Origin: Lentimicrobiaceae bacterium | GTDB lineage: Bacteria; Bacteroidota; Bacteroidia; Bacteroidales; UBA4417 | NCBI GenBank assembly: GCA_041660125.1 | Contig: JBAZWY010000004.1 | Span: forward strand, 165,630 to 229,629 | Length of the DNA: 64,000 nt | Direction: 5' to 3' | In this document: one piece after another, positions 16,626 to 36,140 of the stretch | How the letters are laid out: every line of letters begins with the position of its first letter | How positions within the stretch are numbered: position 1 is the stretch's first letter | Position numbers and translations under genes: made by a program | The notes under the pieces: model-generated | Told to the model about the DNA's origin: nothing | The model's input: only the letters and a program-made list of their open reading frames with translations | The model's database searches: none

Positions 16626-16644
16626 AACTCTATTATTTCAAAAA

Positions 16645-17064
16645 TCAGAATGTAATGGTACGCATGGTGCCATCCGGCGAAACCAGGATATGTACATGTA
16701 CCGTTTCTTCGGGTAACAAATTTACGATTTTTTCGGGCCATTCCAGCAAACAGTAATTCCCGCTGTAAAAGTAATCTTCATAACCGATTTCCAGCATTTC
16801 GGTCCAGGATTTAATCCTGTAAAGATCAAAATGATAAATACTTGTTAAATTTTCTGTAAAATATTCATTCACAATAGCGAATGTAGGACTGCTTACCGTG
16901 TCAGTAACTTTTAAATGTTCACAGATTGTCTTGATAAAGGTTGTTTTACCGGCTCCCATTTCGCCATGAAAAGCAAAGATTCTTTTATCTTTATGAAATT
17001 CAATCAATCTGGCGGCTATTGGTTGAAGTTCATCAGGAGACTGACATGTATAAATTTGAGCCAT
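16645..17064 (-). CDS. tsaE: tRNA t6A37 biosynthesis ATPase TsaE
   Basis: 139 aa. P-loop GEMGAGKTTF, SPTFAIVNEY, HFDLYR. Confidence 0.92.
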   Translation of the reverse strand: MAQIYTCQSPDELQPIAARLIEFHKDKRIFAFHGEMGAGKTTFIKTICEHLKVTDTVSSPTFAIVNEYFTENLTSIYHFDLYRIKSWTEMLEIGYEDYFYSGNYCLLEWPEKIVNLLPEETVHVHILVSPDGTMRTITF

Positions 17065-17279
17065 GCGTGAAGGTTAGTATTTCAATGAATGGTTCATGTT
17101 ATTGCAGGTAGAGAATTTCTGTTTTTTGTTGTGCCGAAGTGCAGGGTGCCGAAGTACCGGGTACCGATGTACAGGGTTTCGTTTGTCGGAGTGTTGGGAT
17201 TGGTAGATTGTAACCAGAAACTTGATATCTGAAACCATTTCCCTATTTCCCTTTTTTCTATTTTCTATTTTTCCCACCC

Positions 17280-18833
17280 CTACTTTGCTTTCATATAAAT
17301 GAACGGGATCATGATTTCCTCCATCGAAATGCCTCCGTGCTGGATGGTATCGCGGTAATACTGAACATAGTGATTGTAGTTGTTGGGATAAGCAAAGAAA
17401 TCGACGCCCCGACAAAACAGATAGGTTGAACTCACATTGGTACGCGGAAGAAAAGCTTCAGCCGGATTTTTAACCTCAAATACTTCATTTTTATTATAAT
17501 TAAGGCTTTTCCCGTTTTTATAACGGAGATTGGTATTGGTAGCACGGTCGCCAATCACTTTAACCGGGTTGCTAACTCTTACCGAGCCGTGATCGGTAGT
17601 TATAATGAGAGGTATCTTTTTTGCAGCCAGGAATTTAATAATATCGAGCAGCGGTGAATGTTCGAACCAACTTACCGTTAACGAACGGTACGCCGCTTCG
17701 TCGTCGGCCAGTTCGCGTATCACTTCCATTTCGGTTCGGGCGTGTGAGAGCATATCCACGAAATTGTAAACAATGACATTAAAACGGTTGTCCATCAGGT
17801 TGGGAAGCGTATCAACCAGTTTACGGCCTGCAGTAAGATTCAGGATTTTCGTATAGGAATATTTCACATCGTGCCCGAACCGTTTCATATTTTCACGAAG
17901 CAATTCTCCTTCATACATGTTCTTACTGCCGTCTTCATCTTCTTCGACCCAGTATTTTGGATATTTTTTAATTATTTCGGTTGGCATAAGACCTGAGAAC
18001 AAAGCATTGCGGGCATACTGCGTTGTTGAAGGCAATATGCTGTAATACAATTCATCGCTCTCAACGCGGTAATATTCCTCAAAAATAGGCTGAAGCATTT
18101 TCCACTGGTCGTACCGCAGGTTATCGATTAAGATCAGGAACATCGAGCTGTTCTCTTTTATCAAAGGGAAAACTTTCTCACGCAAAAGTGTATGAGATTG
18201 GATAGGCTTATCGTCACTTCGGCCATTCAGCCAATCGAGGTAATTCCGTTCGACGTATTTACAAAAAACCTGGTTGGCTTCATCTTTCTGCGAACGCATT
18301 ATATCAATAATTCCCTGGTCCTGGGCTTTTTCGAGTTCGAGTTCCCAGTAAACCAATTTTTTATAAACTTCGACCCATTCATTAAAATCAAGCCTGTTGC
18401 TGATTTCCATTCCTATGTTACGAAATTGCTGTTGATAGGCATGAGTCGTTTTTTCACTGACCAGCCGCTTGTTTTCCAGGTTTTTCTTTACACTCAGCAA
18501 TATCTGTTTCGGGTTAACAGGCTTAATCAGGTAATCCGATATGCTTGCCCCGATTGCATCTTCCATGATATGTTCTTCTTCACTTTTGGTGATCATCACA
18601 ACGGGTAAGTTTGGGTAACTCGCTTTAATGATTGAAAGGGTTTCGATGCCCGACAATCCAGGCATGTTTTCGTCAAGAAAAACGATATCCACTGTTTTGG
18701 ACTTCAGCAAATCAATAGCTTCGTCACCATTATTCGTTGTAAATACTTCATACCCCTTGTCCTTAAGAAACATGATATGCGGTTTCAAAAGATCAATTTC
18801 ATCGTCGGCCCACAATATTACTCCGTTTTCCAT
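17280..18833 (-). CDS. porX: PorX-type response regulator with PglZ/alkaline-phosphatase-like domain (T9SS regulator)
   Basis: 517 aa. Receiver domain ILWADDEIDLLKPHIMFL...VFLDENMPGLSG...ITKSEEE...DYLIKPVNP followed by a PglZ domain. Collinear with the PorX proteins I recall, and adjacent to tsaE. Confidence 0.88.
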   Translation of the reverse strand: MENGVILWADDEIDLLKPHIMFLKDKGYEVFTTNNGDEAIDLLKSKTVDIVFLDENMPGLSGIETLSIIKASYPNLPVVMITKSEEEHIMEDAIGASISDYLIKPVNPKQILLSVKKNLENKRLVSEKTTHAYQQQFRNIGMEISNRLDFNEWVEVYKKLVYWELELEKAQDQGIIDIMRSQKDEANQVFCKYVERNYLDWLNGRSDDKPIQSHTLLREKVFPLIKENSSMFLILIDNLRYDQWKMLQPIFEEYYRVESDELYYSILPSTTQYARNALFSGLMPTEIIKKYPKYWVEEDEDGSKNMYEGELLRENMKRFGHDVKYSYTKILNLTAGRKLVDTLPNLMDNRFNVIVYNFVDMLSHARTEMEVIRELADDEAAYRSLTVSWFEHSPLLDIIKFLAAKKIPLIITTDHGSVRVSNPVKVIGDRATNTNLRYKNGKSLNYNKNEVFEVKNPAEAFLPRTNVSSTYLFCRGVDFFAYPNNYNHYVQYYRDTIQHGGISMEEIMIPFIYMKAK

Positions 18834-18879
18834 TTTTTTGAATTAGCTTTACTATATAACAATCAATAAGCGCATTTGT

Positions 18880-18887
18880 TATCTTTG
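18880..18887 (+). promoter_or_regulatory. Candidate -7 box TATCTTTG
   Basis: TAnnTTTG match 135 nt upstream of the HD-domain gene (long leader, so uncertain). Confidence 0.35.
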
Positions 18888-19021
18888 CATACCTGGACTA
18901 AAAGAGTGAGGTCGAAGATTTTTTAATACCATCTGATACTAACATACTAAGTCATCCTTTAATGGTTTATTGTGTTTGTAAACGAATTAACGTTACTTTT
19001 ATACAAATTTAACAAAATAGA

Positions 19022-20266
19022 GTGTCAACTGAACCTGCCTTTAAACGAAAAATAATAAACGACCCGCTTTATGGTTTTATTACCATTGCCGATAAATTGG
19101 TTTTTGATGTAATTGAGCACCCGTTTTTCCAACGCCTCCGGAGGATAGAACAGTTAGGATACGCATCAATGGTGTATCCGGGTGCGTTACATACTCGGTT
19201 TCAACATGCTATTGGCGCCATGCACCTTATGGGCCTGGCCATTGAAACACTACGATCGAAGGGATTTGAAATTTCGCAGCAGGAATCACAGGGAGCAACA
19301 CTGGCTATTCTGCTGCACGATATCGGGCACGGACCTTTTTCGCATGCACTTGAACATCATATTGTTCACAATATTTCGCATGAGGAAATTACCCTCATGT
19401 TTTTGAAACAATTGAATACCGAATTCGAAAACAAATTGGAAACCGCCATTGCCATTTTCGAAAACACTTATCCCCGTAAGTTTTTACACCAATTAGTATC
19501 AGGGCAACTTGATGTTGACAGGCTCGATTACCTGATGCGTGATAGTTTCTACACCGGTGTCAACGAAGGCGTGATTAGTACCGACCGGATACTGAAAATG
19601 CTGACTGTTGTGGATGATGATCTGGCTGTTGAACTGAAAGGCATTTATTCAATTGAAAAGTTTATTGTTGCCCGCCGGTTGATGTACTGGCAGGTATATT
19701 ATCATAAAACTGTGCTGGCCGTAGAATATATGCAGATCAGCATACTGAACAGGGCCAGGGTACTTGCAAGTGAGGGAAAAGATTTGCCTGCTTCATCAGC
19801 CTTACAGTTTTTCCTGAGTCATCAGATCGGGAAGGAACAATTTGAAACATCACCTGCCATACTTTCAACCTTTGCTGCGCTTGACGATTACGACATTCAT
19901 TCTGCAATAAAGCAATGGTCGTCACATACTGATCCGATTCTGAGTTCCTTATGCACATCACTTCTTAACAGGAATCTCTTCAGGGTTATAATCACCCCAA
20001 CTCCTTTCGCAGAAGAAAAAATTACCGAAATACGGAACAGGATAACAGAAAAACTAAAACTGAAAGGAGAAGAGTACCATTATTTTACCGGCCAGGGAGA
20101 AATCTCAAACAGTGCCTACGATCCCAACAACGATCGAATAACTATTGTAGATAAAGACGGTGAACGATGGGATATTTCCGGTCTGTCCGAACAGCTGAAT
20201 ATTGCAATTTACAATAAAACTGTTTCAAAGTACTTCACCTGGTTTCCTAAATGGGCCGACAAATGA
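19022..20266 (+). CDS. HD-domain phosphohydrolase (dNTPase/SAMHD-like)
   Basis: 414 aa, GTG start. RFQHAIG...LLHDIGHGPFSH...DVDRLDYLMRD motifs. Conserved position upstream of lpxD. Confidence 0.88.
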   Translation: MSTEPAFKRKIINDPLYGFITIADKLVFDVIEHPFFQRLRRIEQLGYASMVYPGALHTRFQHAIGAMHLMGLAIETLRSKGFEISQQESQGATLAILLHDIGHGPFSHALEHHIVHNISHEEITLMFLKQLNTEFENKLETAIAIFENTYPRKFLHQLVSGQLDVDRLDYLMRDSFYTGVNEGVISTDRILKMLTVVDDDLAVELKGIYSIEKFIVARRLMYWQVYYHKTVLAVEYMQISILNRARVLASEGKDLPASSALQFFLSHQIGKEQFETSPAILSTFAALDDYDIHSAIKQWSSHTDPILSSLCTSLLNRNLFRVIITPTPFAEEKITEIRNRITEKLKLKGEEYHYFTGQGEISNSAYDPNNDRITIVDKDGERWDISGLSEQLNIAIYNKTVSKYFTWFPKWADK

Positions 20267-20322
20267 CAACACTTATTAAATAGATGTTATAAACATGTGA
20301 TGCCCATGTGAATAATAATAGC

Positions 20323-20330
20323 TATATTTG
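20323..20330 (+). promoter_or_regulatory. -7 promoter box TATATTTG upstream of the lpxD operon
   Basis: Exact TAnnTTTG about 40 nt upstream of the lpxD ATG. Confidence 0.5.
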
Positions 20331-20371
20331 CAAACTTTTAAACCAACTGGAATTTAACTTATTTGATCCTG

Positions 20372-21433
20372 ATGGAATTTACTGCAAAAGACATCGCCGA
20401 CCTTGTAGGTGGCACTATTGACGGAAACCCTGACGTAAAAGTGAACCGATTAGCAAGGATTGAAGATGGTGAACCTGAGGCGCTCAGTTTCCTGGCCAAT
20501 CCAAAATACTATTCATATATCTATACCACCCGATCGTCTATCGTATTAGTTCAGAGTGATTTCGAGGCTGAACAGGCACTTTTCTGCACTTTAATCCGTG
20601 TTGACGATCCTTATACTGCTTTTGCAAACCTGCTTGAGATTTATGATAAAATGCGAAAAGGCAAAACTGGAACCTCGTCATTATCTTCGATTGCTTCATC
20701 GGCTAAAATTGGGAGCAATGCCTATATTGGTGATTTTGTTGTTATCAGTGATAATGTAGTTATTGGTGATGATGTTAAAATTTTCCCGCACAGTTATATT
20801 GGTGAAAATGTTAAAATAGGCTCGGGAACAACTATCAATCCCGGGGTAATCATATATTACGACTGCACTGTTGGAGCCAAATGCACCATACACGGAGGTT
20901 CCGTTATTGGCGCCGATGGATTTGGCTTTGCCCCGCAGAGTGACAATAATTATAAAAAAGTAGCTCAGATCGGGAATGTTATTATTGAAGACAACGTTGA
21001 AATAGGAGCAAATACAACGATTGACCGCGCTACCCTTGGTTCTACTATTATCCGTCGTGGTGTTAAACTCGATAACCTGATACAGGTCGGCCACAACGTT
21101 GAAATCGGAGAAAATACAGTTATAGCCGCCCAATCAGGAATTGCAGGATCGACCAAAGTAGGGAAAAACTGTATGTTAGGTGGCCAGGTAGGACTTGCAG
21201 GCCACATTGTTATTGCCGACGATGTTAAAATCGGGGCACAGGCAGGTTTAGCCAGTAGTGTAAATAAACCTGGTAGTGTGCTTCTTGGTGCACCCGCCAT
21301 TGATATCAGCAGATTCCGAAGGATTATAGCCATTTTTAATAACCTTGATAAATTATATTACCGGATAGGGGATCTGGAAAAAACAATAAAACAATTACAA
21401 GCCGAAAGAATCGTCGACGAAAAAAACAGCTAA
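20372..21433 (+). CDS. lpxD: UDP-3-O-acylglucosamine N-acyltransferase
   Basis: Left-handed beta-helix hexapeptide repeats and an N-terminal LpxD domain ([12 protein letters not shown]...). Start taken at ATG 20372 rather than the TTG at 20363. Confidence 0.93.
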
Positions 21434-21464
21434 ATACTACAGTTTAGTTTACTTATATTTTAAT

Positions 21465-22862
21465 ATGTTTGATAAACAACGTACCATAAAAGAGCCAGTT
21501 ACCATTAAAGGCTCCGGATTACATACAGGCAAACAGGTTACCCTAACTTTCAAACCGGCCCCTGCCGACCACGGAATCAAATTTTGCCGTGTTGACCTGG
21601 AGGAAAAACCGGTGATTGATGCCATTGCAGATTACGTGGTAGATACATCGCGCGGAACAACAATCGAATTTCAAGGTGTAAGGCTTGTAACTATCGAACA
21701 CGTTTTGGCTTCGGTCGCAGGATTAGGCATCGATAATATACTGGTGGAAGTTGACAGCGAAGAAATGCCGATTATGGACGGCAGCGCCCGTTTTTTTGTT
21801 GCAGCCCTTGATACCGCAGGAATAATTGAACTGGATGCTATACGCGAATATTTCGAGTTCCGGAGTACTCTTACTCTTACAGACGCAAAACGGAAAAGTG
21901 AAATGGTACTTGTTCCTGACGACAACTTCCGGCTTTCGGTAATGATTGATTTTGAAACACGGATACTGGGTACTCAATATGCCTCAATCGCCGATATCGA
22001 AGACTTCAGGAAAGAAATTGCCGATTGCCGCACCTTTGTATTTCTGCATGACCTGGAATTCCTTATCAATAACAACCTGATTAAAGGTGGCGATGTGAGC
22101 AATGCAATCGTTTTTGTTGAACGCCTGCTCAGTGAAGCCGAACTTGATAGCCTGGCCAAGCATTTCAACAAGCCCAAAATTACCGTTCTGAAAGAAGGTA
22201 TCTTAAATAACCTTGAACTTCGATTCCATAATGAACCTGCCAGGCATAAACTCCTGGATGTGATTGGCGACCTTGCTCTCGTCGGGATGCCATTGAAAGG
22301 ACATATTATTGCTACACGTCCCGGACACCTGGTGAATACCAATTTTGCAAAACTCATACGTGAGCATATTAAAAATGCACCAAAAGGGCCTAAAATTGAC
22401 CTCAACAAGAAACCAGTTTACGATATTAACGATATTAAAAAAATATTACCTCACCGTCCGCCATTTCTCTTAATTGATAAAATAATGGAAATTAGCGACA
22501 AGCAGGTTATTGGCGTAAAGAATGTCACTATGAATGAGGCTTTTTTTGTCGGCCACTTTCCCGAAGAACCGGTCATGCCCGGAGTACTCCAGGTTGAGGC
22601 TATGGCGCAGACCGGCGGGGTATTTGTGCTGCATTCAGTGCCTGATCCTGAAAATTACATCACCTATTTCCTTAAAATGGAATCCGTTAAATTCAGGCAA
22701 AAGGTTGTTCCCGGCGACACTCTGGTATTTGTGCTCGAAATGATATCGCCTGTCCGCAGAGGTATATGCCATATGCGCGGAATAGCCTGGGTAGGCGATA
22801 AAATTGTTACCGAAGCCGAACTGATGGCACAAATTGTGAGAAAGAAAGATACTTCAGAATAA
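21465..22862 (+). CDS. lpxC-fabZ: Bifunctional UDP-3-O-acyl-GlcNAc deacetylase / 3-hydroxyacyl-ACP dehydratase
   Basis: 465 aa. LpxC N-terminal part (TIEHVLASVAGLGIDN, HKLLDVIGDL) fused to FabZ (LPHRPPFLLIDK...FFVGHFP...PVMPGVL). The fusion is typical of Bacteroidota. Confidence 0.95.
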   Translation: MFDKQRTIKEPVTIKGSGLHTGKQVTLTFKPAPADHGIKFCRVDLEEKPVIDAIADYVVDTSRGTTIEFQGVRLVTIEHVLASVAGLGIDNILVEVDSEEMPIMDGSARFFVAALDTAGIIELDAIREYFEFRSTLTLTDAKRKSEMVLVPDDNFRLSVMIDFETRILGTQYASIADIEDFRKEIADCRTFVFLHDLEFLINNNLIKGGDVSNAIVFVERLLSEAELDSLAKHFNKPKITVLKEGILNNLELRFHNEPARHKLLDVIGDLALVGMPLKGHIIATRPGHLVNTNFAKLIREHIKNAPKGPKIDLNKKPVYDINDIKKILPHRPPFLLIDKIMEISDKQVIGVKNVTMNEAFFVGHFPEEPVMPGVLQVEAMAQTGGVFVLHSVPDPENYITYFLKMESVKFRQKVVPGDTLVFVLEMISPVRRGICHMRGIAWVGDKIVTEAELMAQIVRKKDTSE

Positions 22863-22972
22863 AAATGCAAGGTGCCGTTTGCCAGGTACAGGGTTCCATT
22901 TTTAAGAACTTTGAACCCAAAGCCCTTGAACTCCTGAATCCCAAAACCAACAACTTCAATTAAGTTACTGCA

Positions 22973-23761
22973 ATGAACCAGCCCTTAGCATACGTACACC
23001 CACAGGCAAATATTGCCAAAAATGTAGTAATTGAGCCTTTTGTAAACATCGAAAAAAATGTTGAAATCGGCGAAGGCACCTGGATCGGGTCAAGCGTTAC
23101 TATTATGGAAGGAGCCCGTATCGGCAAAAACTGCCGGATTTTTCCCGGAGCAGTTATTGCTGCCGTTCCTCAGGATTTAAAATATGCCGGCGAAGACTCA
23201 ATAGTACGAATTGGCGATAATACCACCATCAGGGAGTTTGTCACAGTTAACAGGGGAACAAAAGCAATGATGGAAACTGTTATTGGCAACAACTGCCTTA
23301 TAATGGCTTACGCTCATATAGCTCACGATTGTATCGTCGGAAACAATTGCATCCTGGCTAATGCCGCCACACTTGCCGGCCATATTACGGTTGACGATTA
23401 TGCCATTATTGGCGGGTTGACTGCTGTACACCAGTTTGTTACCATTGGCCAGCACACCATGATCTCAGGAGGTTCGCTGGTTCGTAAAGATGTGCCACCT
23501 TTTACCAAGGCTGCGCGTGAACCGGTTTCATATGTTGGGATTAACTCAGTAGGCTTACGCCGAAGAGGATTTTCGAACGAAAAAATCAACGAGATACAGG
23601 ATATTTACCGCATCATTTTCCTTAGCGGTTACAATGTAAGCCGTGCCGTCGAAATCGTGGAAACAACCATGCATCCTACGGTTGAACGTGATGAAATTCT
23701 TTCGTTTATCAGCCGCTCCACACGAGGGATAATGAAAGGCTACTCGAAGTCGAGGGAGTAA
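22973..23761 (+). CDS. lpxA: Acyl-ACP--UDP-N-acetylglucosamine O-acyltransferase
   Basis: 262 aa. Hexapeptide repeats plus an LpxA C-terminal helical domain (GINSVGLRRRGFS). Confidence 0.94.
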   Translation: MNQPLAYVHPQANIAKNVVIEPFVNIEKNVEIGEGTWIGSSVTIMEGARIGKNCRIFPGAVIAAVPQDLKYAGEDSIVRIGDNTTIREFVTVNRGTKAMMETVIGNNCLIMAYAHIAHDCIVGNNCILANAATLAGHITVDDYAIIGGLTAVHQFVTIGQHTMISGGSLVRKDVPPFTKAAREPVSYVGINSVGLRRRGFSNEKINEIQDIYRIIFLSGYNVSRAVEIVETTMHPTVERDEILSFISRSTRGIMKGYSKSRE

Positions 23762-23944
23762 TATTTAAACTAAATATCGGCCACAGAGAGTGATAATACG
23801 GGTTAATCAAACAATTCATTCCTTCACGATAGTATTAAAAATCATTGATTGATCATTTGATCATAAAATAAATACAACTTTTTCCTAAAGTTCAGCGAAA
23901 AATCTTCCACTCCAAAAAATCTTACATCCAGAACTGAAAAATCA

Positions 23945-24577
23945 ATGCAGATTATCCTGAGCAAAATAAGCAGAAAGTTTAATTACGAATGGATTTTCCG
24001 GGATGTGGATTTTGAATTTGAACAAGGAAATGCGTATGCAATCCTGGGCTCGAACGGTTCGGGGAAATCAACACTGCTTCAGATTATTTCGGGCCACTTG
24101 CATCCCTCCGGCGGAACAGTAACTTACTTTCATAATAACCAGGAAATCCCGGTTGATGACTTTTTCAGGCATGTAACTTTCAGCGGCCCGTATCTCGAAC
24201 TCATAGAAGAATTCACCCTGGAGGAAATGATCACGTTCCACAGCCGGTTCCGTAAATTCCGCCACAACATGGATGTAAATGCGGTAATGGAAGCCACCGG
24301 CCTGATGCGCAACCGCAATAAGCCGATAAAATATTTCTCTTCCGGCATGAAACAAAGGGTGCGGCTGGCAATTGCCCTGCTTACCGAATCGGAGGTAGTG
24401 CTTCTCGACGAACCTGCTGCCAACCTCGACCGCAAAGCCATCGAATGGTACCGTAGCCTGGTTGCCGAAAATCATAAAGACAGGATTATTATTGTCTGTT
24501 CCAATTCGCAAAGCGAAGAACATGATTTTTGTACGCAATCCATTGTGATTGATGACTATAAGAAGATTGGGAAATAG
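23945..24577 (+). CDS. ABC transporter ATP-binding protein (stand-alone ATPase)
   Basis: 210 aa. Walker A GSNGSGKST, signature FSSGMKQR, Walker B VVLLDEP. Confidence 0.9.
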   Translation: MQIILSKISRKFNYEWIFRDVDFEFEQGNAYAILGSNGSGKSTLLQIISGHLHPSGGTVTYFHNNQEIPVDDFFRHVTFSGPYLELIEEFTLEEMITFHSRFRKFRHNMDVNAVMEATGLMRNRNKPIKYFSSGMKQRVRLAIALLTESEVVLLDEPAANLDRKAIEWYRSLVAENHKDRIIIVCSNSQSEEHDFCTQSIVIDDYKKIGK

Positions 24578-24615
24578 GTAATCGAAAATCATTATTGGTT
24601 TAAGTTTATTAGGGC
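24487..24615 (+). repeat. att-like direct repeat, copy A (functional 3' end of the ABC-ATPase gene plus about 35 nt downstream)
   Basis: TATTATTGTCTGTTCCAATTCGCAAAGCGAAGAACATGATTTTTGTACGCAATCCATTGTGATTGATGACTATAAGAAGATTGGGAAATAG... recurs at 27317 and, from AGAACA onward, at 28484. Confidence 0.9.
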
Positions 24616-24700
24616 ATATTTGTTTAAAATTTTTTATATACTAACCGGCACCAAACCATTTAAATATACTTATCTTTGTTTAAAGTAATATTTGAATTAA

Positions 24701-25042
24701 GTATTCCAAGGTAAATTCAAATCAATTCATGTTGAAAAAGATTCACATTTGATGTATTTAACTATGTATATTCATTTAAATCCGCTTGATTATGATTTTA
24801 AAGAATGGAGAATAAAGAAAATTACAAATACAAAACAAGCCTTTGATTATCTGAGTAATTATAGGTGGAGTAGCCTGTTGGATTATATTGGTAAGAAAAA
24901 TTTTCCATCAATTATACAAAAAGATTTTTTATTAAGTAGATTAGGGAATGAAGAAAAACAAAAGAAGGAAATAACCGGTTGGATAGAATCATTTGATCAA
25001 ATTAATAAAGAAAATTTAAACAGAAATGTTACTTTTGAATAA
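24701..25042 (+). pseudogene. 5'-truncated HUH/Y1 (COG1943, RayT/IS200-like) transposase remnant
   Basis: The frame reads VFQGKFKSIHVEKDSH-LMYLTMYIHLNPL...YRWSSLLDYIGKK. This matches the C-terminal block (LFQGRYK...YIHLNPV...Y.WSS..YIG) of the family as I recall it. The upstream HUH domain is missing and an in-frame stop lies at 24698. Confidence 0.65.
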
Positions 25043-25057
25043 AATACTTTATTTTAG

Positions 25058-25088
25058 ATTGTTGGAAGTCGGACTTCCAACAATCTAT
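25058..25088. repeat. REP-like palindrome AGATTGTTGGAAGT-CGG-ACTTCCAACAATCT
   Basis: 14-bp perfect stem immediately 3' of the transposase remnant. Second copy at 25224-25250. Confidence 0.85.
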
Positions 25089-25223
25089 TTTGGGAATAAA
25101 AAGGTGGATAAGTAATTTGACAAAAGCCTAAATTACTTAGATAATAAAAATAAATAACATTGTTTGGATTTGTTTAAATTTATCTTGATAAATTAAGTCA
25201 TTTTGTAGAAAAACGTAAGAAGT

Positions 25224-25250
25224 GTTGGAAGTCGGACTTCCAACAATTTT
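25224..25250. repeat. REP-like palindrome, second copy (TGTTGGAAGT-CGG-ACTTCCAACA)
   Basis: Same core and same loop orientation as 25058-25088. Confidence 0.85.
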
Positions 25251-25340
25251 CAACAAGAAGATTTGTCGGGATAAATTTAAACAAATCCTATCATAAAAAA
25301 ATAATCCAAATAAATATAAACCCTCTAAAGCCGAGAAACG

Positions 25341-26021
25341 ATGAAAAATTTTCTGAGAATGCTTGCTGTACTTTTGTTACTGGCTTTAGTTTTTGCTATG
25401 GCCGGTTGCGGAGAAGACCCCATAATTCCAAAAAAGTTATGGTACACAATCACACCCATGTCTGACACTGTGGTGTTGGGCACTAGTTTACAATTTAAAA
25501 TTGTATCTAACGCTGATTCAATGACTTCGGATATTCCTGAAGCTAAAATGCTTCAGGCGCCAATCAGCAAAATAGTTGAAACTGGCCTTATTACCGAAAC
25601 AACCATTTACCATGTAGTTTTTTACTTAAATGGTAAGGGGGTTGATATTGCCAACCCAACTTTTTTTGTTCGTGACCCGACCATGGAAGAACTCCTCTGC
25701 CTGTACGGCCCATGGAGTATGGTGAAACTTGAATTCCAGGATGCTCCCGGTTTACCCTGGTATGAGGCTGATATATGGGATTGTAACAAAGATAATTTAT
25801 TATACTTCTATCTGACTCCGACAAAAAAAGAGGTTAGTGATAGAGGAGAAATTCTCTGTAGCAATGAACCTAAAACCTCAGAAGGACCATGGACTTTGTC
25901 TGGGAATATCCTTAATACGGGTGGGGAAGAAGAAATTATTACTCTTAATCAAGATACCTTGATTTGGGTGTATCGCCCAGGTACCCTAGATTCAACAAGG
26001 GAAACCTTCATTCACCCCTAA
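25341..26021 (+). CDS. Lipoprotein of unknown function
   Basis: Signal peptide with lipobox LVFAMAGC. 226 aa. Confidence 0.7.
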   Translation: MKNFLRMLAVLLLLALVFAMAGCGEDPIIPKKLWYTITPMSDTVVLGTSLQFKIVSNADSMTSDIPEAKMLQAPISKIVETGLITETTIYHVVFYLNGKGVDIANPTFFVRDPTMEELLCLYGPWSMVKLEFQDAPGLPWYEADIWDCNKDNLLYFYLTPTKKEVSDRGEILCSNEPKTSEGPWTLSGNILNTGGEEEIITLNQDTLIWVYRPGTLDSTRETFIHP

Positions 26022-26049
26022 AACCATTTATTTGGATTAATATAAAATC

Positions 26050-26079
26050 GACTGCTTCTTATGGATGCAGTCTTTTTTT
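26050..26079 (+). terminator. Rho-independent terminator
   Basis: GACTGC-N11-GCAGTC followed by TTTTTTT. Confidence 0.6.
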
Positions 26080-26247
26080 GTTTTTGAGGATAAGTTCTCA
26101 CGCTTATATTTTCGTATAAAATGGGTATGGGGATAAATGATTCTTTACATTTTTAATATATGGTAGAATATATGTAATTAAGAATTAAGAATTAGGTTAA
26201 TAATTCTTAAAAAAATTCACAAATATTATTATTAACTTTTTATTACT

Positions 26248-27378
26248 ATGAATCTATTTAAAAAATCGTTTGTTGGAGGTTTGTTTTTATTTATTTTATT
26301 AGGAGTATATAGTCAAACAAATATTGTTAATGCAGATTATTGTACATATGACCATTTTATTCCAGGAACAACTACATTACAAAATTCGACATGTACCTCA
26401 CGAACATTCGCGACTTGTACTGCTGACCCTTATTACCATTTAAATAGGATAATGATATGTAAATGGGTTACATCTGCTTCTACTCCTCCTCCCCCTGTTG
26501 TTATTCTTGAAAAAGACCCAAATAGAGTTAAAAATAAAGTTATGAAAAGTGTGGGGACAGGGGCAGGTTCGGTATATTTAAATATATTTGTAGATAAACT
26601 TACTTCGGGAGGTTGTACTTTACAAAACAATGGAGTGAATGTTGATAATTATGTATATAAGAGTGATTTTAATATAAAAAGTAAAACAGTCTCAAGTCTA
26701 ACAGCCGATGAGAATAATTTTCAGCTTAATTGTGCGGGCTCTTCTTCTCCTTCATTAACAAGTGTAATTCAAAATGTGAAAGCACAAACGGGAGTACTGA
26801 CAATACCGGCTACTTGTACGATTCCACTTGGAGGAAGTAGTTGTCCGAGTAATACCACCCTCTTTTCTTGGTCAACCACAAATCCATATTCAACTTCGAA
26901 TATGTCGTATTATACTCAAGTTAAGAATGAAGCAACTGGGTCAGCTGTCTCATCGCCAACGAATACTATGAGTTCAGTGGGAGTGGCTGTTCCTTATACA
27001 TCAGGGGGAGCAAAATATAAAATGTGGAACTATGTAGATGGAGAAAATAATACGGTCAGTATTCCAACGAATCAGCCAAGTGATTATAGTCTTAAAACAA
27101 TCATCACTAATTGTGCTTCAGGTAGTTGGAATGGAAGTATTTGTGCAGCGGCTCCTACCGTCACTTCTCCAACTTGTACAAATATTACAGCAACTAGTAT
27201 GACAGCCGGAGCAACTGTTACGTCATTAGGATATCCGACATCAATAACCCGTGGAACTTGTGTGGGAGGATATTCCCCAACAAACTGTGCAGCAGAAGGT
27301 GGAACAACGACGGGAGTATTATTGTTTGTTCCAATTCGCAAAGCGAGGAACATGATTTTTGTACGCAATCCATTGTGA
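26248..27378 (+). CDS. Secreted Cys/Ser/Thr-rich protein of unknown function; 3' end runs out of frame into att-like copy B
   Basis: N-terminal signal peptide (FVGGLFLFILLGVYSQ), many Cys, a PPPP linker, AT-rich codons. The last ~20 aa (LLFVPIRKARNMIFVRNPL) are read from the duplicated ABC 3' segment in another frame. Confidence 0.6.
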   Translation: MNLFKKSFVGGLFLFILLGVYSQTNIVNADYCTYDHFIPGTTTLQNSTCTSRTFATCTADPYYHLNRIMICKWVTSASTPPPPVVILEKDPNRVKNKVMKSVGTGAGSVYLNIFVDKLTSGGCTLQNNGVNVDNYVYKSDFNIKSKTVSSLTADENNFQLNCAGSSSPSLTSVIQNVKAQTGVLTIPATCTIPLGGSSCPSNTTLFSWSTTNPYSTSNMSYYTQVKNEATGSAVSSPTNTMSSVGVAVPYTSGGAKYKMWNYVDGENNTVSIPTNQPSDYSLKTIITNCASGSWNGSICAAAPTVTSPTCTNITATSMTAGATVTSLGYPTSITRGTCVGGYSPTNCAAEGGTTTGVLLFVPIRKARNMIFVRNPL

Positions 27379-27418
27379 TTGATGACTATAAGAAGAGTGG
27401 GAAAAAGTAAAAATAGTT
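27317..27418 (+). repeat. att-like direct repeat, copy B (continues at 27511-27535 after a GC-rich insert)
   Basis: About 95 nt nearly identical to 24487-24580. In the ABC frame it still encodes IIVCSNSQSEEHDFCTQSIVIDDYKKSGKK*. Confidence 0.9.
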
Positions 27419-27510
27419 CCCTTCGGCTGGCTTCGGCTGGCTTCGGCTTCCACCGCCGCTGGCGGGGCAGGCTGCTCTGCCACCGTCGCTCAGCCACCGT
27501 CGCTAAGGGT
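27419..27510. repeat. GC-rich mini-element inserted in att-like copy B
   Basis: CTTCGGCTGG x2.5, hairpins CCGCC-GCT-GGCGG and GGCAG-N6-CTGCC, CCACCGTCGCT x2. Its core CCGCTGGCGGGGCAGGCTG resembles CCGCTGAGCGGGACAGGCTG at 7826-7845. Confidence 0.7.
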
Positions 27511-27607
27511 GAAAATGGTTAATAGTTATTAGGGCTTCCCGCGTTTTGTACAGATTGTTTGAATAACTAATTATTTGAATCAATTTAAATAGTAACTTTT
27601 TGTTTCG

Positions 27608-27615
27608 TATTTTTG
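27608..27615 (+). promoter_or_regulatory. -7 promoter box TATTTTTG for the toxin-antitoxin operon
   Basis: TAnnTTTG match 35 nt upstream of the antitoxin ATG. Confidence 0.45.
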
Positions 27616-27649
27616 TTCTGATATTGATTCACTTTTCAAAAACACCCGG

Positions 27650-27883
27650 ATGAACATACAAACGCAAAAAGCAATTATAATTGAGCAGTTTAAGCAGGTG
27701 AATGACGTTAACCTGATTAATGCGATTAAGAGTATGCTCGATTACGCAATAAAGAAGGAAAAGGAAGTTTATGATGTACCTGAAGCCCATCAGCAAATGG
27801 TAATGGAGCGTTTCGAAAAAGTACGTAAAAAACCAGAAAGGCTTTTAGATTGGGATGAAGCCCAAAATACACTTAAAGCCTGA
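27650..27883 (+). CDS. Antitoxin ('addiction module component'-like) of a type II TA pair
   Basis: 77 aa, helical and acidic. The stop overlaps the toxin start (TGATG). Position is upstream of a ParE/RelE-like gene. Confidence 0.7.
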   Translation: MNIQTQKAIIIEQFKQVNDVNLINAIKSMLDYAIKKEKEVYDVPEAHQQMVMERFEKVRKKPERLLDWDEAQNTLKA

Positions 27884-28200
27884 TGAAGAAGTATAAAATA
27901 AAAATTGAGCCGGAAGCGCTTGGCGATATTCAGGACATTACCAATTGGTATAATGAAGCGCAGGCAAAGCTCGGCAAAAAGTTTCAGGATACCACTATCG
28001 CAAAAATTAACCGGCTTAGTAAAGACCCCCAAATTTTCGCTATTAGATATCAGGAAATCAGGTGCATGCAGGTACCGAAATACCCATACATGGTTCATTT
28101 CTATATTAACGAAGAGACCAATATAGTTGAAGTATTGGCAGTGATCAGCACCAATCGGAACCCGAAGATTTGGGAAGAAAAAACGGATAAACATACATGA
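27883..28200 (+). CDS. ParE/RelE-family type II toxin
   Basis: 105 aa. Pattern ...EALGDIQDITNWY...YPYMVHFYINEETNIVEVLAVISTNRNP typical of ParE-like toxins. Confidence 0.75.
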   Translation: MKKYKIKIEPEALGDIQDITNWYNEAQAKLGKKFQDTTIAKINRLSKDPQIFAIRYQEIRCMQVPKYPYMVHFYINEETNIVEVLAVISTNRNPKIWEEKTDKHT

Positions 28201-28483
28201 CCATTTAAAGCTGCTGATCTTATTTCGGACAATTACAAGCAATAAAACATACTGATTGATGCCTGCAATGGCATATATAAACAGAATGCAATTTAAAGCA
28301 GCAAAGACAGGAGAATGAAGCGCTTTGCAGACTAATTATTTTCTGTTATTTTCATCCGGCACGGATTATTCGTCCCGCTTCCCACAAAAATGCGGAACAA
28401 GCTATGATATCTCTGCGATAAGTAATCAGCCTTTGGCTGATGAGATCACTTCGTTATGTTACAAATCCACGCCAGCGGGAACA

Positions 28484-28579
28484 GAGAACACGATTTTTGC
28501 ACGCAATCCATTGTGATTGATGACTATAAGAAGAGTGGGAAATAGTTAATGGAAAATAGTCAATAGAAAATAGTTTGGG
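28484..28579 (+). repeat. att-like direct repeat, copy C (last ~60 nt of the ABC gene plus downstream tail)
   Basis: AGAACACGATTTTTGCACGCAATCCATTGTGATTGATGACTATAAGAAGAGTGGGAAATAG plus a GAAAATAGT... tail. Shares the AGAGTGGG variant with copy B. Confidence 0.88.
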
Positions 28580-28695
28580 TTTCTGATATTAACTCTCTTA
28601 TAACTGATTTGTATATCCTGAAGATATTTTGAGTACTCCTTATGTGTTTTTCAAATTACCAGAATTCAAATTCATCGAATTCTCGGGAAAAAGTG

Positions 28696-28703
28696 TACTT
28701 TTG
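28696..28703 (+). promoter_or_regulatory. -7 promoter box TACTTTTG upstream of efp
   Basis: TAnnTTTG match about 45 nt upstream of the efp ATG. Confidence 0.5.
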
Positions 28704-28746
28704 CACCCATTTTAAAAAAGTGTAAACATCATTCTAATACCAATTT

Positions 28747-29310
28747 ATGGCAACAACTTCTGAATTCCGCAATGGACTTTGCATAGAATTCAACAACGAT
28801 CTCTATAAAATTGTAGAGTTTCAGCATGTTAAACCAGGTAAAGGCCCAGCTTTTGTCCGTACAAAACTCAAAAACCTAAAAACCGGAAAGGTTATCCCAA
28901 ATACATTTACAGCAGGCGCGCCTATTGATATAGCCCGTGTTGAGCGCCGTCCATACCAGTTTTTATACAAAGACGAGAATGGATACAATTTCATGAACAC
29001 CGAGACATTTGACCAGATTTCAATCGAGGAAGAAATGGTTGATAATTATCAGTTTATGAAAGAAGGCCAGGGAGTTGAAATAATGGTGCATGCTGATACC
29101 GAAACACCTTTAACCTGCGAGCTTCCAGCTTTTGTTGAGTTGGAAATCACTTACACCGAGCCTGGTTTCCGCGGTGATACAGCTTCAAACACATTGAAGA
29201 AAGCTACTCTCGAAACCGGAGCAATTGTTCAGGTTCCATTGTTTATTGATGAAGGCACAAAAATACGCATCGACACACGTACCGGCACTTATTTCGAAAG
29301 GGTAAAATAA
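28747..29310 (+). CDS. efp: Elongation factor P
   Basis: 187 aa. [43 protein letters not shown]. Confidence 0.96.
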
Positions 29311-29363
29311 GGCTGTAAAGCAAATCGTTGGGTTTGCATTAAAATAAACATACAGCTATTATT

Positions 29364-30293
29364 ATGAAATTCCTTTCACCAATAGCACTCAGTGAAATTG
29401 CAGGCTTTATAGGCGCAACCTATTGTGGTGATGCCATGTTCCCGGTTTCGGGAATCAATGAAATACATATGGTTTCACCAGGTGATTTGACTTTTGTCGA
29501 TCACCCGAAATACTATAGCAAAGCACTATCATCCAAAGCCAGCATTATTATAATCAAACAGGAGGTGGATTGTCCCGAAGGCAAAGCACTCCTTATCCAC
29601 AACGACCCTTTTGCCGCATACACTTCGCTGGTGCAAAGGTTCAGACCTTTCATCGCATCAACATCTGCAATAAGCCTAACTGCCATTATCGGAGAAGGCA
29701 CGGTTATTCAACCAGGTGTTTTTGTTGGCAACCATGTTGAAATCGGTAAAAACTGCCTCATTCATTCTAATGTAAGCATCAACGATTACACCGTTATCGG
29801 CAACAATGTTGTTATTCATGCCAACAGCGTTTTAGGGGCCGATGCATATTACTTTCAGCGCAATCCCGAAGGTTACCGTAAACTTGAATCATGTGGAAGA
29901 GTCGTTATTCAGGATAATGTTGAAATTGGCGCTCTCTGTTCGATCGACAGGGGCGTATCGGGTGATACCGTTGTCGGTAAAGGGACAAAATTCGATAACC
30001 ACGTTCAGGTAGGCCACGACACACAAATCGGCAAAAACTGTCTTATTGGAGCTCATACGGCCATTGCCGGTGTAACACGTATTGAGGATGATGTTATAAT
30101 TTGGGCAAAAGTTGCTATAAACAAAGATCTCGTAATTGGCAAAGGTGCCGTTATTCTTGCCACATCCGCTGTAGATAAATCACTGGCACCCGGAGGTACT
30201 TATTTTGGAATACCGGCCATCGAAGCCCGAAAAAAATGGAAAGAACTGGTAATGCTTCGCAAATTACCTGGGCTTTATTCAAAGCTGAAATAG
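29364..30293 (+). CDS. lpxD: Second, shorter LpxD-family UDP-3-O-acylglucosamine N-acyltransferase paralogue
   Basis: 309 aa. LpxD-type N-domain and hexapeptide beta-helix (GKGTKFDNHVQVGHDTQIGKNCLI). Confidence 0.8.
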   Translation: MKFLSPIALSEIAGFIGATYCGDAMFPVSGINEIHMVSPGDLTFVDHPKYYSKALSSKASIIIIKQEVDCPEGKALLIHNDPFAAYTSLVQRFRPFIASTSAISLTAIIGEGTVIQPGVFVGNHVEIGKNCLIHSNVSINDYTVIGNNVVIHANSVLGADAYYFQRNPEGYRKLESCGRVVIQDNVEIGALCSIDRGVSGDTVVGKGTKFDNHVQVGHDTQIGKNCLIGAHTAIAGVTRIEDDVIIWAKVAINKDLVIGKGAVILATSAVDKSLAPGGTYFGIPAIEARKKWKELVMLRKLPGLYSKLK

Positions 30294-33968: not shown

Positions 33969-34148
33969 GGGATCAACCTCGGTATTATAGCTGGCAAAGG
34001 TAGGAAAATCTGTATAAAAAGCAATTGGTGAAAGAAACCGTAGCTCAATAATATCGTATGCGTATGCAGATTCATTTTCTTTTCTGATCGTTTCTCTGTT
34101 CGCGGAACTTTGTAACGCGTGCGGGTACATTTGTTACTACCGAAGGAA

Positions 34149-34757
34149 CATTGACTGAAGCAGGATTTACAGGATTTAAGGATTTACAAAATTAGGATTT
34201 GGGTGGTATTTGGGATTAAAGAGCAACTTGTATTGGAGACTTTGACTTCCAAAATTGATTAATAAACCCAAAGGGAAATCATAAGCCACAGTATAATTTT
34301 TTGCCTGGGCAATATTCACATCTTCAAGATTAACAAGGGCTTTCAATTCAACTACTACTTTTTCTTCAACCACAAAATCTGCCCTGCGAGAACCAACTTC
34401 TATATCCTCGTAATAAACGGTTTGTTCCTTCTCCCTTTGAAAAGCCAGGCCAGCTCTCGCAAATTCGATAGCCAGGCACCTCTGATAAATCACTTCCTGA
34501 AAACCCGGACCCATCGTGTTGTGAACCTTTATTGCGCAACCAATTATTTTATATGTCAGATCATCCTTCTCCATACCGCTAATTTACAGTTTCCCTTTAA
34601 CTCTTCTTAATTCTTCTACACTTTTTTAAAAAATCCTGTAAATCTATAAATCCTGTAAATCCTGATTCTGACAATTTAGTAATTGTTTTTCAAAGAACGT
34701 GAAGCAAAACTATTTTTTTTATTTGTACCGGTGCTGATTGCAAATTAGCGCCAGCGG
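34149..34757 (-). repeat. GxxExxY module, direct-repeat copy 1 (~600 bp: gene plus flanking inverted 8-mer arrays)
   Basis: Near-identical to 36138-36748. GGATTTAC units at 34155-34200 and inverted GTAAATCC units at 34631-34668 flank the gene. Confidence 0.9.
34176..34574 (-). CDS. GxxExxY protein (PD-(D/E)XK-like, PDDEXK_3 family)
   Basis: 132 aa. Motif GPGFQEVIY (GxxExxY) and the core RADFVVEEKVVVELK. Confidence 0.85.
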   Translation of the reverse strand: MEKDDLTYKIIGCAIKVHNTMGPGFQEVIYQRCLAIEFARAGLAFQREKEQTVYYEDIEVGSRRADFVVEEKVVVELKALVNLEDVNIAQAKNYTVAYDFPLGLLINFGSQSLQYKLLFNPKYHPNPNFVNP

Positions 34758-34807
34758 GGTAAAACCCTTTTTGTGGAGCATTACCAAAAGACAAATATAA
34801 CACCACC

Positions 34808-35113
34808 TTAACTTGAAAAGAAAATTTCAGGAAAAAATAAAATGATTAGAGACCATGATATAAATGATAAATAGAATATAAGGATAAAGATAAAGGACCA
34901 AATTATAAGATTTTTCTCCACCGTATCAAGTGAATTGTATAATTTGAACATTCCTACTACTCTTCTAAGGGGTATGTTCGATTTTTTTTTGTTTACATAT
35001 TTTGCATCATATTTCGTGAAGATTATATCTAATTTATTTTTATTTATATTTAAGAATGTAACAGAAATGACTGGTGGTAAAATTGCTATAAAAAATTGCA
35101 GAACAATGTTCAT
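34808..35113 (-). CDS. Small membrane protein, candidate immunity protein for the orphan Rhs tip
   Basis: 101 aa, very AT-rich, with N- and C-terminal hydrophobic segments. Starts 19 nt after the orphan toxin stop. Confidence 0.55.
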   Translation of the reverse strand: MNIVLQFFIAILPPVISVTFLNINKNKLDIIFTKYDAKYVNKKKSNIPLRRVVGMFKLYNSLDTVEKNLIIWSFIFILIFYLSFISWSLIILFFPEIFFSS

Positions 35114-35132
35114 GATTTTAATTATTTAATTG

Positions 35133-36140
35133 TTAACGTCTACCTGGTCTTATCCAGAAATCTGGTGAAGGGCTTTCAAAGAGTAAAGTATAAGAGTAAT
35201 AATAACCATAAATAGCAGTACCTGGAATTCCAATATTTGCACCAACACCAGAATATTTATCTCCTATACCACCCATACCACCAGTTTCAGAAGAATTTCC
35301 AAAAACTTCCCAACCAAGTCCTAATTGCCACATTAAGCCTTGAGAAGCCCCGCCAAAGTCTGCAAGATGAAAATTATTAGATAAACGAGACACACCCATT
35401 CCTGCTGTTGCACCACCTCCAACAACTCCTCCAAAAGTTAAATATAAGCTTGTATTACCATAACTATCAGAGACAGCACCAATATCTATCATGATTCCTA
35501 AGAGCCCAAATGCAGCTGCAGCATTGAAAGCAGAAACAGCAAGCCCATACTTGCCAGGTGGGTCGCCGTCTCCTAAATCACCTCCCAAATCGCCTTCAAA
35601 CATTAAACCATACCCTATATTACTGGCTGCGGCTAAAGCTTTATTATCTTCATAAGCTTTTTGCTGATTATAATTAACTCTCCATTGGTCAAGAAGAGCT
35701 TGTGCATTATAGGAATTAGGCAAGATATAATTGTTATATACAGTCGCATAAGGTACAACATCCCCTGTAGCGATATCAATGTAAGTTCCATTATTACTTA
35801 CACAGGTATATCCCTGAGAGCCCGGTGTTGGGTCATAATGTAATGGTGTTGCTCCAGCGGACCAACCACCATTACCACCCGAAAAGCTTGGTGAATAAGA
35901 TACCCAACTACTTCCGGTATTTTTCATATAACTTCCACGATACCAAAAACCTCCACCATCATAGTCATATATGCCTTCCATTTTTGCAAGAAATGTATTC
36001 CCACTCGGATCCGTGTACTTCAGCGGGTTATTCATACAATAGCTATATCTGTTGTAGCTTTGAGTATAACCGGGTGCTTGTACAAAAGCATCCGGGCTTA
36101 GTACACGGCCAATTACCGGGTCGTACATACGGCCATTCAT
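35133..36140 (-). CDS. Orphan Rhs C-terminal toxin cassette (core-end stub plus divergent Gly-rich tip)
   Basis: Starts MNGRMYDPVIGRVLSPDAF...NRYSYCMNNPLKYTDPSGN, the last 47 aa of an RHS core. Includes a 35-nt stretch (36094-36128) identical to 38345-38379 of the full-length gene. A 288-aa unrelated Gly-rich tip follows. Confidence 0.8.
   Translation of the reverse strand: MNGRMYDPVIGRVLSPDAFVQAPGYTQSYNRYSYCMNNPLKYTDPSGNTFLAKMEGIYDYDGGGFWYRGSYMKNTGSSWVSYSPSFSGGNGGWSAGATPLHYDPTPGSQGYTCVSNNGTYIDIATGDVVPYATVYNNYILPNSYNAQALLDQWRVNYNQQKAYEDNKALAAASNIGYGLMFEGDLGGDLGDGDPPGKYGLAVSAFNAAAAFGLLGIMIDIGAVSDSYGNTSLYLTFGGVVGGGATAGMGVSRLSNNFHLADFGGASQGLMWQLGLGWEVFGNSSETGGMGGIGDKYSGVGANIGIPGTAIYGYYYSYTLLFESPSPDFWIRPGRR

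Follow-up and report, generated by a model that had tools for sequence, protein, structure and literature searches.

Repeated ends of an ABC-transporter gene in a Lentimicrobiaceae genome are probably scars of homology-anchored illegitimate recombination

Why is the 3' end of one gene present three times, always in the same orientation, around two short islets that carry no recombinase? This question is raised by the interval between the gene of an ATP-binding cassette (ABC)-transporter ATPase and efp in the genome of a Lentimicrobiaceae bacterium (assembly GCA_041660125.1, contig JBAZWY010000004.1), which was analyzed within a stretch of 64,000 nt, hereafter called the window. Direct repeats of a gene 3' end around integrase-less DNA are commonly taken as attachment (att) sites of decayed mobile elements, and a preliminary description of the locus, made from the sequence alone, had read it in this way. 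Comparison with related genomes suggests a different origin. The copies of the ABC end are probably scars of homology-anchored illegitimate recombination, which stacked alternative alleles of the interval behind the gene, and not recombination sites. The ABC-efp interval itself is a strain-variable spot that is either empty or holds a ParE toxin-antitoxin (TA) module or an islet encoding a lipoprotein and a secreted protein.

In the window, the end of the intact main copy of the ABC gene (23945..24577, + strand; 210 aa; PF00005, E=4.9e-27) and efp (28747..29310, + strand; PF08207, PF01132, PF09285), with which the backbone resumes, are separated by a gap of 4.2 kb. A 42-nt core, GATTTTTGYACGCAATCCATTGTGATTGATGACTATAAGAAG, occurs on the + strand at 24524, 27354, and 28492 and nowhere else in the 64 kb; it was matched in 0 of 100 shuffled sequences, and 0 occurrences are expected by chance. 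A repeat search returned a 102-nt family consisting of 24476-24577, 27306-27407 (93% identity), and 28444-28545 (68%); the last value is low because homology of this copy is limited to the last 61 nt. Copy A (24479..24615, + strand) comprises the last 99 nt of the ABC gene including the stop codon, with the protein ending in KKIGK, and a 38-nt tail ending in TTATTAGGGC. Copy B (27309..27418, + strand) comprises the last 99 nt of an ABC gene (27309-27407), which are 93% identical to copy A, and the beginning of the tail. Its stop codon is shifted (...KKSGKK), and the ABC frame is retained as ...IIVCSNSQSEEHDFCTQSIVIDDYKKSGKK and stop within an open reading frame (ORF) at 27258-27410. The remainder of the copy-B tail (27510..27535, + strand) is homologous to the tail of the related locus L010 (...GTCATTATGGC followed by TTCCC) and ends in TTATTAGGGC as well, so that this sequence is present at 24606-24615 and again at 27526-27535. 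Copy C (28485 to approximately 28579, + strand, as delimited by alignment) comprises the last 61 nt of an ABC gene including the stop codon (KKSGK) and a tail; by BLAST, 28485-28557 aligns with 24517-24589.

The three copies differ from one another by several substitutions. Copies B and C have AGAGTGGG in common at a position where copy A has AGATTGGG. The real ABC protein ends in KKIGK in the window versus KKSGK in the closest strain, and stubs B and C match the latter. Furthermore, the tail of copy B is split by a GC-rich insert of 91 nt (27419..27509, + strand; GC approximately 66%), which is bounded by CCCTT...AAGGG and contains the short direct repeats CTTCGGCTGG and CCACCGTCGCT. This insert is present in all strains of the species (the window and contigs L087-L089); neither the corresponding tails in L010 and L095 nor any other locus fetched contains it. 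It showed no significant fold (z = -0.94 versus shuffles) and no Rfam match.

Islet 1 (24616..27308, + strand; 2.7 kb), located between copies A and B, is homologous by BLAST to a chromosomal locus downstream of ackA, which is represented by the sister-strain contigs L090/L091. There, ackA is followed by a spacer, a lipoprotein gene, a 182-aa ORF, and a gene for a 254-aa protein, P0122. The matching parts of islet 1 are its non-coding left portion and its final 160 nt: 24604-24691 aligns with L090 1430-1515 (80% identity), 25092-25195 with 1522-1625 (95%), 25260-25353 with 1808-1891 (74%), and the right end, 27160-27320, with both 3586-3745 and 3876-4036 (85%). The GC content of the left side is 23-28% versus approximately 43% in the backbone. 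The far end of L090 (4610-4792) matches positions 2-191 of the window; therefore, the paralogous ackA-side locus lies about 25 kb upstream of the islet on the same chromosome.

The right end of islet 1 falls inside a gene. The gene at 26248..27378 (+ strand) encodes a Cys/Thr-rich secreted protein of 376 aa, which is truncated in the middle of a domain and whose last approximately 20 codons extend into copy B in a frame other than that of ABC. Proteins P0122 and P0124 hold a repeated domain reading ...AEGGTTTGVFTHTRTGLTPNTLYW..., and the full domain runs on as ...GGTTTGVFTHTRTGLTPNTLYW...; the window protein breaks off at ...GGTTTGV, followed by LLFVPIRKARNMIFVRNPL and stop. P0123 from strains L087-L089 shows the same truncation. 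A three-way comparison located an illegitimate joint between islet 1 and copy B at the 12-nt microhomology GACGGGAGTATT (27309..27320, + strand), where the secreted-protein gene reads GACAGGAGTATT versus GACAGGATTATT in the ABC gene at 24479, i.e. GACAGGA[G/T]TATT. Among 1.85 million 12-mer pairs formed between the ABC gene with its tail and the L090 segment, 8 matched in at least 11 of 12 positions; these correspond to 5 sites, and the joint is one of them.

Islet 2 (27536..28484, + strand), located between copies B and C, consists of a promoter region, two genes, and a right flank termed Z (28201-28484, + strand). The first gene (27650-27883, + strand) encodes an antitoxin of 77 aa with a weak match to PF09720 (E=0.008), the second (27883-28200, + strand) a ParE toxin (PF05016, E=3.7e-8), and the antitoxin ORF overlaps the start of the toxin gene by 1 nt (ATGA). 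By its gene layout and the fold family of the toxin, islet 2 is classified as a predicted type II ParE/RelE module; 174 homologues were found in Bacteroidota at E<=1e-15. Up to this point, much of the preliminary description was borne out, namely the triple direct repeat around two cassettes, the splitting of copy B by a GC-rich insert, its readability in the ABC frame, the variant common to copies B and C and missing from copy A, the ParE-type toxin of the TA pair, and the lack of a recombinase, since no such domain was detected among the islet ORFs scanned. The proposed serial addition behind the ABC gene, with the incoming DNA restoring the gene end, likewise agrees with KKIGK at the real gene end of the window and KKSGK in the stubs and in the closest strain.

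The TA module was found directly behind an intact ABC gene at two further loci, L010 (84% nucleotide identity) and L095 (90%). Locus L010 carries the intact ABC gene, the same tail, and the same TA pair, with 75-79% identity in the backbone and 84% in the TA region. No right-hand ABC copy was detected in L010, where local alignment scores were no better than those of shuffles; a decayed copy C at this place was rejected on the same grounds. In L095, the ABC gene is followed by the TA module, a lipoprotein gene and a secreted-protein ORF, an 81-nt ABC stub, a spacer, and efp, i.e. by the same two islet types as in the window in reversed order. Another truncated ORF continues in frame into this stub (...DIIAGG joined to CSNSQSEEHDFCTQSIVIDDYKKNGK and stop). 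The stub begins at another nucleotide and is joined to another gene, and therefore represents an independent event. Stub lengths thus differ, with 99 nt for copy B, 61 nt for copy C, and 81 nt for L095.

About 19 Lentimicrobiaceae-like loci were obtained by a profile-guided scan with one genome per species. In 12 of these related genomes the site is empty, with 103-390 nt between the ABC stop codon and the efp start, and none of these 12 genomes has a second copy of its own ABC end; an empty ABC-efp site is the rule. As to the short spacers themselves, those of L005, L022, and L017 are mutually unrelated and rich in low-complexity tandem motifs (GTTGCAAT repeats in L005, CCCCTTGTCTCC-like repeats in L022), and conservation is limited to about 50 nt at the efp promoter, mainly among closer relatives.

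Sister-strain contigs from three other metagenomes have a backbone identity of 96.4% upstream and 98.1% downstream of the locus. The arrangement islet-1 end, copy B, TA module, copy C is present at 97% identity in L087 (ENA) and in L088 and L089 (JGI), which are independent assemblies. Copies B and C together with their joints are thus as similar between strains as the backbone (96-98%) and were therefore inherited within the species and not re-inserted. In the sister strains, copy B is preceded by other genes (a 180-aa ORF and the gene of P0123), which end at the same joint, and the left joint of copy C is common to L001, L002, L087, and L088. Three unrelated spacers follow the same copy C: type W in the window and L095, type Y in L001, L002, and L086, and type X in L087 and L088. 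In the window, spacer W occupies 28580..28746 (+ strand) and includes the conserved efp promoter region GGAAAAAGTGTACTTTTGCACCC, a block kept in close relatives. Spacers X and Y occur together in one sample (JGI 3300027265), and the locus is thus polymorphic within a single metagenome. On contig L086, the real ABC gene runs straight into spacer Y, and the last 115 nt of the contig match the sequence behind copy C. The simplest reading of L086 is a co-existing haplotype with an empty site.

The conserved genes to the left of the locus were compared between the window and sister strain L085. The segment from lpxA through the ABC gene (22900-24577) is diverged by 4-6%, and the region upstream of it (17800-22600) by 0-2%. 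Furthermore, the spacer between lpxA and the ABC gene (23743-23927) is non-homologous between the two strains. Raised divergence together with a swapped spacer looks like a recombinant tract that ends at the variable locus.

Taken together, every unit of the array has the composition ABC end, tail, and X, where X is an allele that some genome has immediately after a full ABC gene, namely the TA module (as in L010 and L095), a bare spacer (as in L086 and the empty-site species), or islet 1 (as in the window). We propose that DNA carrying another allele of the region, still joined to its own ABC gene, recombined into the locus, and that this happened at least twice in the lineage of the window. 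On the left side, ordinary homology within the conserved genes from lpxA to ABC would have served as the anchor; on the right side, an illegitimate joint would have formed at a short microhomology within the last approximately 100 nt of the resident ABC gene. The incoming piece would thus supply a complete ABC end, and the resident end would be displaced downstream as a stub. As a consequence, the newest allele would adjoin the gene, and each older allele would keep its ABC-end stub. Read from newest to oldest, the array would consist of the ABC gene with tail and islet 1, cut in a gene; the 99-nt stub with tail, TA module, and Z; and the 61-nt stub with tail, original spacer, and efp. Accordingly ordered, the TA module would have been acquired first and islet 1 second. 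Later exchanges of the spacer behind copy C and of the content of islet 1 would be accounted for by ordinary homologous exchange, with the stubs and the genes on either side as regions of homology. Crossing over once with a self-joined fragment, or switching templates during replication, would lead to the same product, and these routes are not separable here. Homology between the loci, gene truncation, microhomology where islet 1 meets copy B, colinear arrangements in L010 and L095, empty sites, and a separate event in L095 can be read directly from the sequences; the side of the anchor, the sequence of events, a reliance on homologous recombination, and the delivery of the DNA are inferred.

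Several points weigh against this proposal. Neither natural transformation nor another route of DNA delivery is established in this family. The joint between Z and copy C and the joint in L095 have no close parent sequence and hence were not traced to a clear microhomology. The left joint between copy A and islet 1 is known from the window alone, and a TTATTAGGGC-like sequence at the left edge of islet 1, present in copies A and B of the window and in weaker form in L090 and L095, could hint at a preferred site. An exact-core scan of viral sequences gave no match, which is a weak negative result as 27-mers were matched exactly against limited collections. Finally, three independent stubs all begin within the final 61-99 nt of the ABC gene, where random joints should scatter more widely. 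This clustering is the best argument for some site preference; it may be due to the nearness of the anchor end and to the instability of longer repeats.

The same facts can be read as site-specific integration, with the ABC 3' end as attB, the islets as decayed cis-mobilizable elements (CIMEs) or as cassettes moved in trans, and copies A, B, and C as attL, hybrid att, and attR. Direct repeats in one orientation do bracket each islet, incoming DNA restores the gene end, and empty sites exist alongside polymorphism within one population; the reversed order of the two islet types in L095, the three different spacers behind the same copy C, and the occurrence of the TA module at unrelated loci would also fit. 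Integration nevertheless appears improbable to us. Islet 1 stops within a coding sequence, on a microhomology to ABC, stubs are of unequal length and homologous islets end elsewhere in L095, and the TA module of L010 stands behind ABC without any right-hand repeat. Islet 1 is a chromosomal paralogue that has no remnant of an integration or transfer gene; relaxase, integrase, and excisionase domains were found neither in islet 1 nor in islet 2. No recombinase was located near any copy, the core appeared in no other context in the limited viral and metagenome scans, and a palindromic site structure was lacking. The exact-core metagenome scan returned only L004, which is the same contig as L001, the sister-strain copies differing by 1-2 bases in the 27-mer used. 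Integrases or recombinases were likewise not found in the islets, in a strain-specific 11-kb insert at 34073-45341, or in the scanned ORFs downstream of ABC in L009 and L016.

With these results, three claims of the preliminary description are not upheld, namely att sites of site-specific integration, CIME-like islets, and a cassette array served in trans. Against them stand the variable stub lengths, the islet-1 end in the middle of a gene at a 12-nt microhomology, the derivation of islet 1 from a paralogous chromosomal locus and not from an integrative element, and copy B, tail, and TA module, which reproduce the genuine ABC-TA adjacency of L010 and L095. On the other hand, the empty site that the description suggested looking for exists in the 12 related genomes, presence/absence polymorphism was found even within one metagenome, and the repeats do not belong to a larger segmental duplication. 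One outcome named there as counting against integration was nevertheless obtained, as the core was not seen beside a recombinase or mobile element, within the limits of exact-match searches in limited collections.

Alternatively, template switching, or a tandem duplication followed by deletions, may have copied about 2.7 kb from the ackA-side locus some 25 kb away, with re-entry into the ABC gene 137 nt upstream of the exit point, so that the gene end was duplicated without incoming DNA. Indeed, a source-like locus is found on this chromosome shortly before the window begins, microhomology is present at the right joint, the left joint shows some similarity (TTTATTAGGGCATAT versus TTTATCAGAGAATAT), and a duplication flanking the copied segment is the classic product of a template switch. 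However, identity to L090 in the non-coding DNA of islet 1 reaches only 75-95%, and the lipoproteins are unrelated; therefore, islet 1 is not a recent copy of the locus of that strain. Copying within the genome would furthermore leave copy C and the ABC-TA adjacency in other species unexplained, and the raised divergence of the lpxA-ABC segment points to imported DNA. We consider this route unlikely, but it deserves more credit than integration. Chimeric joining of strain variants during assembly or binning of a metagenome-assembled genome (MAG) would be a trivial explanation, as the organism is known solely from MAGs and metagenome contigs, and sister-strain contigs break exactly at the repeats. 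Yet islet-1 end, copy B, TA module, copy C, and efp are contiguous in L087, L088, and L089, which come from different projects, L095 is analogous, and the copies are distinct sequences since they differ by several substitutions. Such an artefact is hardly credible.

Among known systems, the locus works most like homology-facilitated illegitimate recombination (HFIR), which has been described in naturally transformed Acinetobacter baylyi, Streptococcus pneumoniae, and Pseudomonas stutzeri (summarized in PMC6382021). HFIR combines an anchor of extended homology on one side with a microhomology of few bases on the other, carries in foreign DNA that adjoins the anchor, and needs no dedicated recombinase (PMC6382021). 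The window resembles it in that a tract on the anchor side is visible (lpxA-ABC) and a microhomology of 12 nt marks one of the joints; moreover, the inserted DNA is contiguous with the anchor elsewhere: L010 and L095 have the ABC end followed by tail and TA module, and L086 and the empty sites have it followed by tail and spacer. A donor carrying ABC gene, tail, and full-length islet 1 was not found. Laboratory recipients usually lose DNA, whereas here the joint lies in the anchor gene and the end of the recipient gene is duplicated and kept. In addition, the events in the window are deduced from natural genomes of an uncultured family.

Accretion of CIMEs (PMC5704250) likewise yields direct repeats of a gene 3' end around integrase-less tandem islets and leaves the target gene intact. 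A CIME, however, retains attL and attR in working order and originates from an integrative and conjugative element or an integrative and mobilizable element (PMC5704250), while the ends in the window are variable illegitimate joints, the cargo is chromosomal, and a cognate integrase or element was not found in limited searches. The ends of CIMEs are constant at the att core; the stubs start at -99 and -61 in the window and at -81 in L095. Orphan rhs-CT/rhsI and cdiA-CT/cdiI arrays (PMC3967940) share with the locus a full main gene that is followed by displaced fragments with a conserved coding start, the position of the newest module next to the main gene with older cargo behind it, and a shared piece that permits later recombination. 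They differ from the ABC stubs, which lack a variable C-terminal domain, repeat the same 20-33 residues, and measure 61-99 nt versus hundreds of nt; here, the variable cargo has no relation to ABC and resides in intergenic islets, and toxin delivery is not involved.

Integrons and clusters of attC sites lacking integron integrases (CALINs) also hold small, promoter-poor cassettes, TA modules included, between repeats of about 60-130 nt. The repeats of the window, in contrast, are coding 3' ends of ABC without the imperfect palindromes of attC sites (z = -0.36), the cassettes do not start and end where the repeats do, and the genes upstream are lpxD, lpxC-fabZ, lpxA, and ABC, with no integron integrase among the scanned ORFs. 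Folding into a hairpin or attC-like site was rejected for the 91-nt insert, for ABC core plus tail, and for the Z flank (z = -0.57), as all three fold no better than shuffles.

Relatives of the TA module were also seen elsewhere. A member of the ParE TA family is present in L094 at an unrelated locus near SCO1/cox genes (79.5% nucleotide identity), flanked by a 110-nt direct repeat (193-302 and 1030-1139; 82% identical) with a terminator-like hairpin. The right flank Z of the window module (28290-28480) is homologous to this 110-nt repeat. The L094 repeats were considered as attC sites and rejected, as they form only a terminator-like stem-loop (z = -2.0 and -2.6) and not an attC-type palindrome. 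Another direct repeat of 168 nt (98.8% identical) was found in a toxin-rich islet of L097 (3379-3546 and 5541-5708) and also in L098. It represents a partial-gene duplication that comprises a Bacteroidetes-type promoter and the first approximately 30 codons of a small ORF and stands before two different TA pairs, one RelE-type and one ParE-type.

The remaining content of islet 1 was analyzed as well. The ORF at 24749..25042 (+ strand) lies within a segment of about 400 nt (24692-25091) that is missing from L090. It had no direct profile match in Pfam, NCBIfam, PHROGs, or PDB; it aligns with the C-terminal approximately 85 residues (about 150-235) of proteins of about 235 aa that bear the Y1_Tnp domain PF01797. 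Since only the C-terminal part is aligned, the ORF is what remains of the 3' part of a Y1 (IS200-like/HUH) transposase gene, without the catalytic domain, and not a functional transposase; the transposase relic named in the preliminary description is thus demonstrated indirectly, by way of relatives of full length. Repeat analysis found the palindrome TGTTGGAAGTCGGACTTCCAACA twice (25060-25084 and 25223-25247), the second copy being surrounded by a 33-nt inverted repeat (25161-25193 and 25261-25293). The palindrome core, GGAAGTCSGACTTCC, was rejected as a genome-wide repetitive extragenic palindrome because, outside islet 1, it occurs only in the paralogous L090/L091 spacer. A non-coding stretch of 104 nt in this area (window 25092-25293; L090 1522-1835) is 95% identical between the two loci, with flanks of only 75-80% identity, and L090 keeps the same inverted-repeat frame, which encloses the first two of its three palindromes. 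Stretch and inverted repeat could represent a conserved element, regulatory or structured, that precedes lipoprotein genes. The lipoprotein gene of islet 1 (25341..26021, + strand; 226 aa) encodes a signal peptide followed by Cys (LVFAMAGCGED); the protein has no match in Pfam or NCBIfam and no homology to the lipoprotein encoded at the same position in L090.

The backbone to the left of the locus is a conserved Bacteroidota cell-envelope cluster with lpxD (20363-21433), lpxC-fabZ (21465-22862), lpxA (22973-23761), and the ABC gene. The ABC protein is 100% identical to an annotated protein of a Lentimicrobiaceae MAG. Its orthologues in the family are 80-98% identical, with RIIIVCSNSQSEEHDFCTQSIVIDDYKK and the C-terminus near-invariant. 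On the right side, efp starts at 28747, approximately 170-190 nt past the copy-C tail; its protein is identical across L001-L003, and a second lpxD (29364-30293) follows. No Rfam family was detected in 23700-29400 or in the L001 spacer.

Two other loci with DNA behind the ABC gene, L009 and L016, in which efp is not present within 10 kb, were considered as integrase islands and rejected, because the ORFs scanned encode only regulators and metabolic proteins and synteny is different. In L009, about 5 kb (14519-19546) contain no ORF of at least 80 aa and no Rfam match at the gathering threshold; possibly, this is masked or low-quality MAG sequence. Further downstream in the window, a segment of approximately 11 kb (34073-45341) is missing from the sister-strain contig L001 and constitutes an RHS toxin locus. 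It encodes a polymorphic toxin of 2081 aa with SpvB, FG-GAP, and RHS repeats (37336-43581, minus strand), two PD-(D/E)XK_3 proteins, a protein with a type IX secretion system sorting tail, and small ORFs, which are possible immunity genes.

The locus adds a new and well-resolved natural case to a known type of event; it is neither a new mobile system nor a new cassette system. It illustrates that the att-like picture can arise without a site-specific recombinase and calls for caution when att sites are assigned. Tell-tale signs of scars are joints that fall in truncated genes and on microhomologies, stubs of variable length, and colinearity of each stub and its cargo with genuine alleles elsewhere. 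Three ABC stubs in two lineages, the 110-nt repeat of L094, and the 168-nt repeat of L097/L098 are hints that islets of Bacteroidota, especially TA modules, might spread between loci and genomes by a recombinase-independent duplicative capture which regularly leaves direct repeats of neighbouring gene ends or terminators of 60-170 nt. We regard this idea as speculative and rather unlikely, and the chance that TA islets are generally captured in this way across the phylum is small. Less likely still is a variant of it in which an enzyme of an unrecognised kind acts in trans on these sites. For the uncultured Bacteroidota family studied here, the locus provides a clean natural example of a process known mainly from laboratory transformation, and the stack of stubs would preserve the order of past acquisitions. 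If duplicative capture were true, such stacks would be a general, readable record of insertions and not a one-off.

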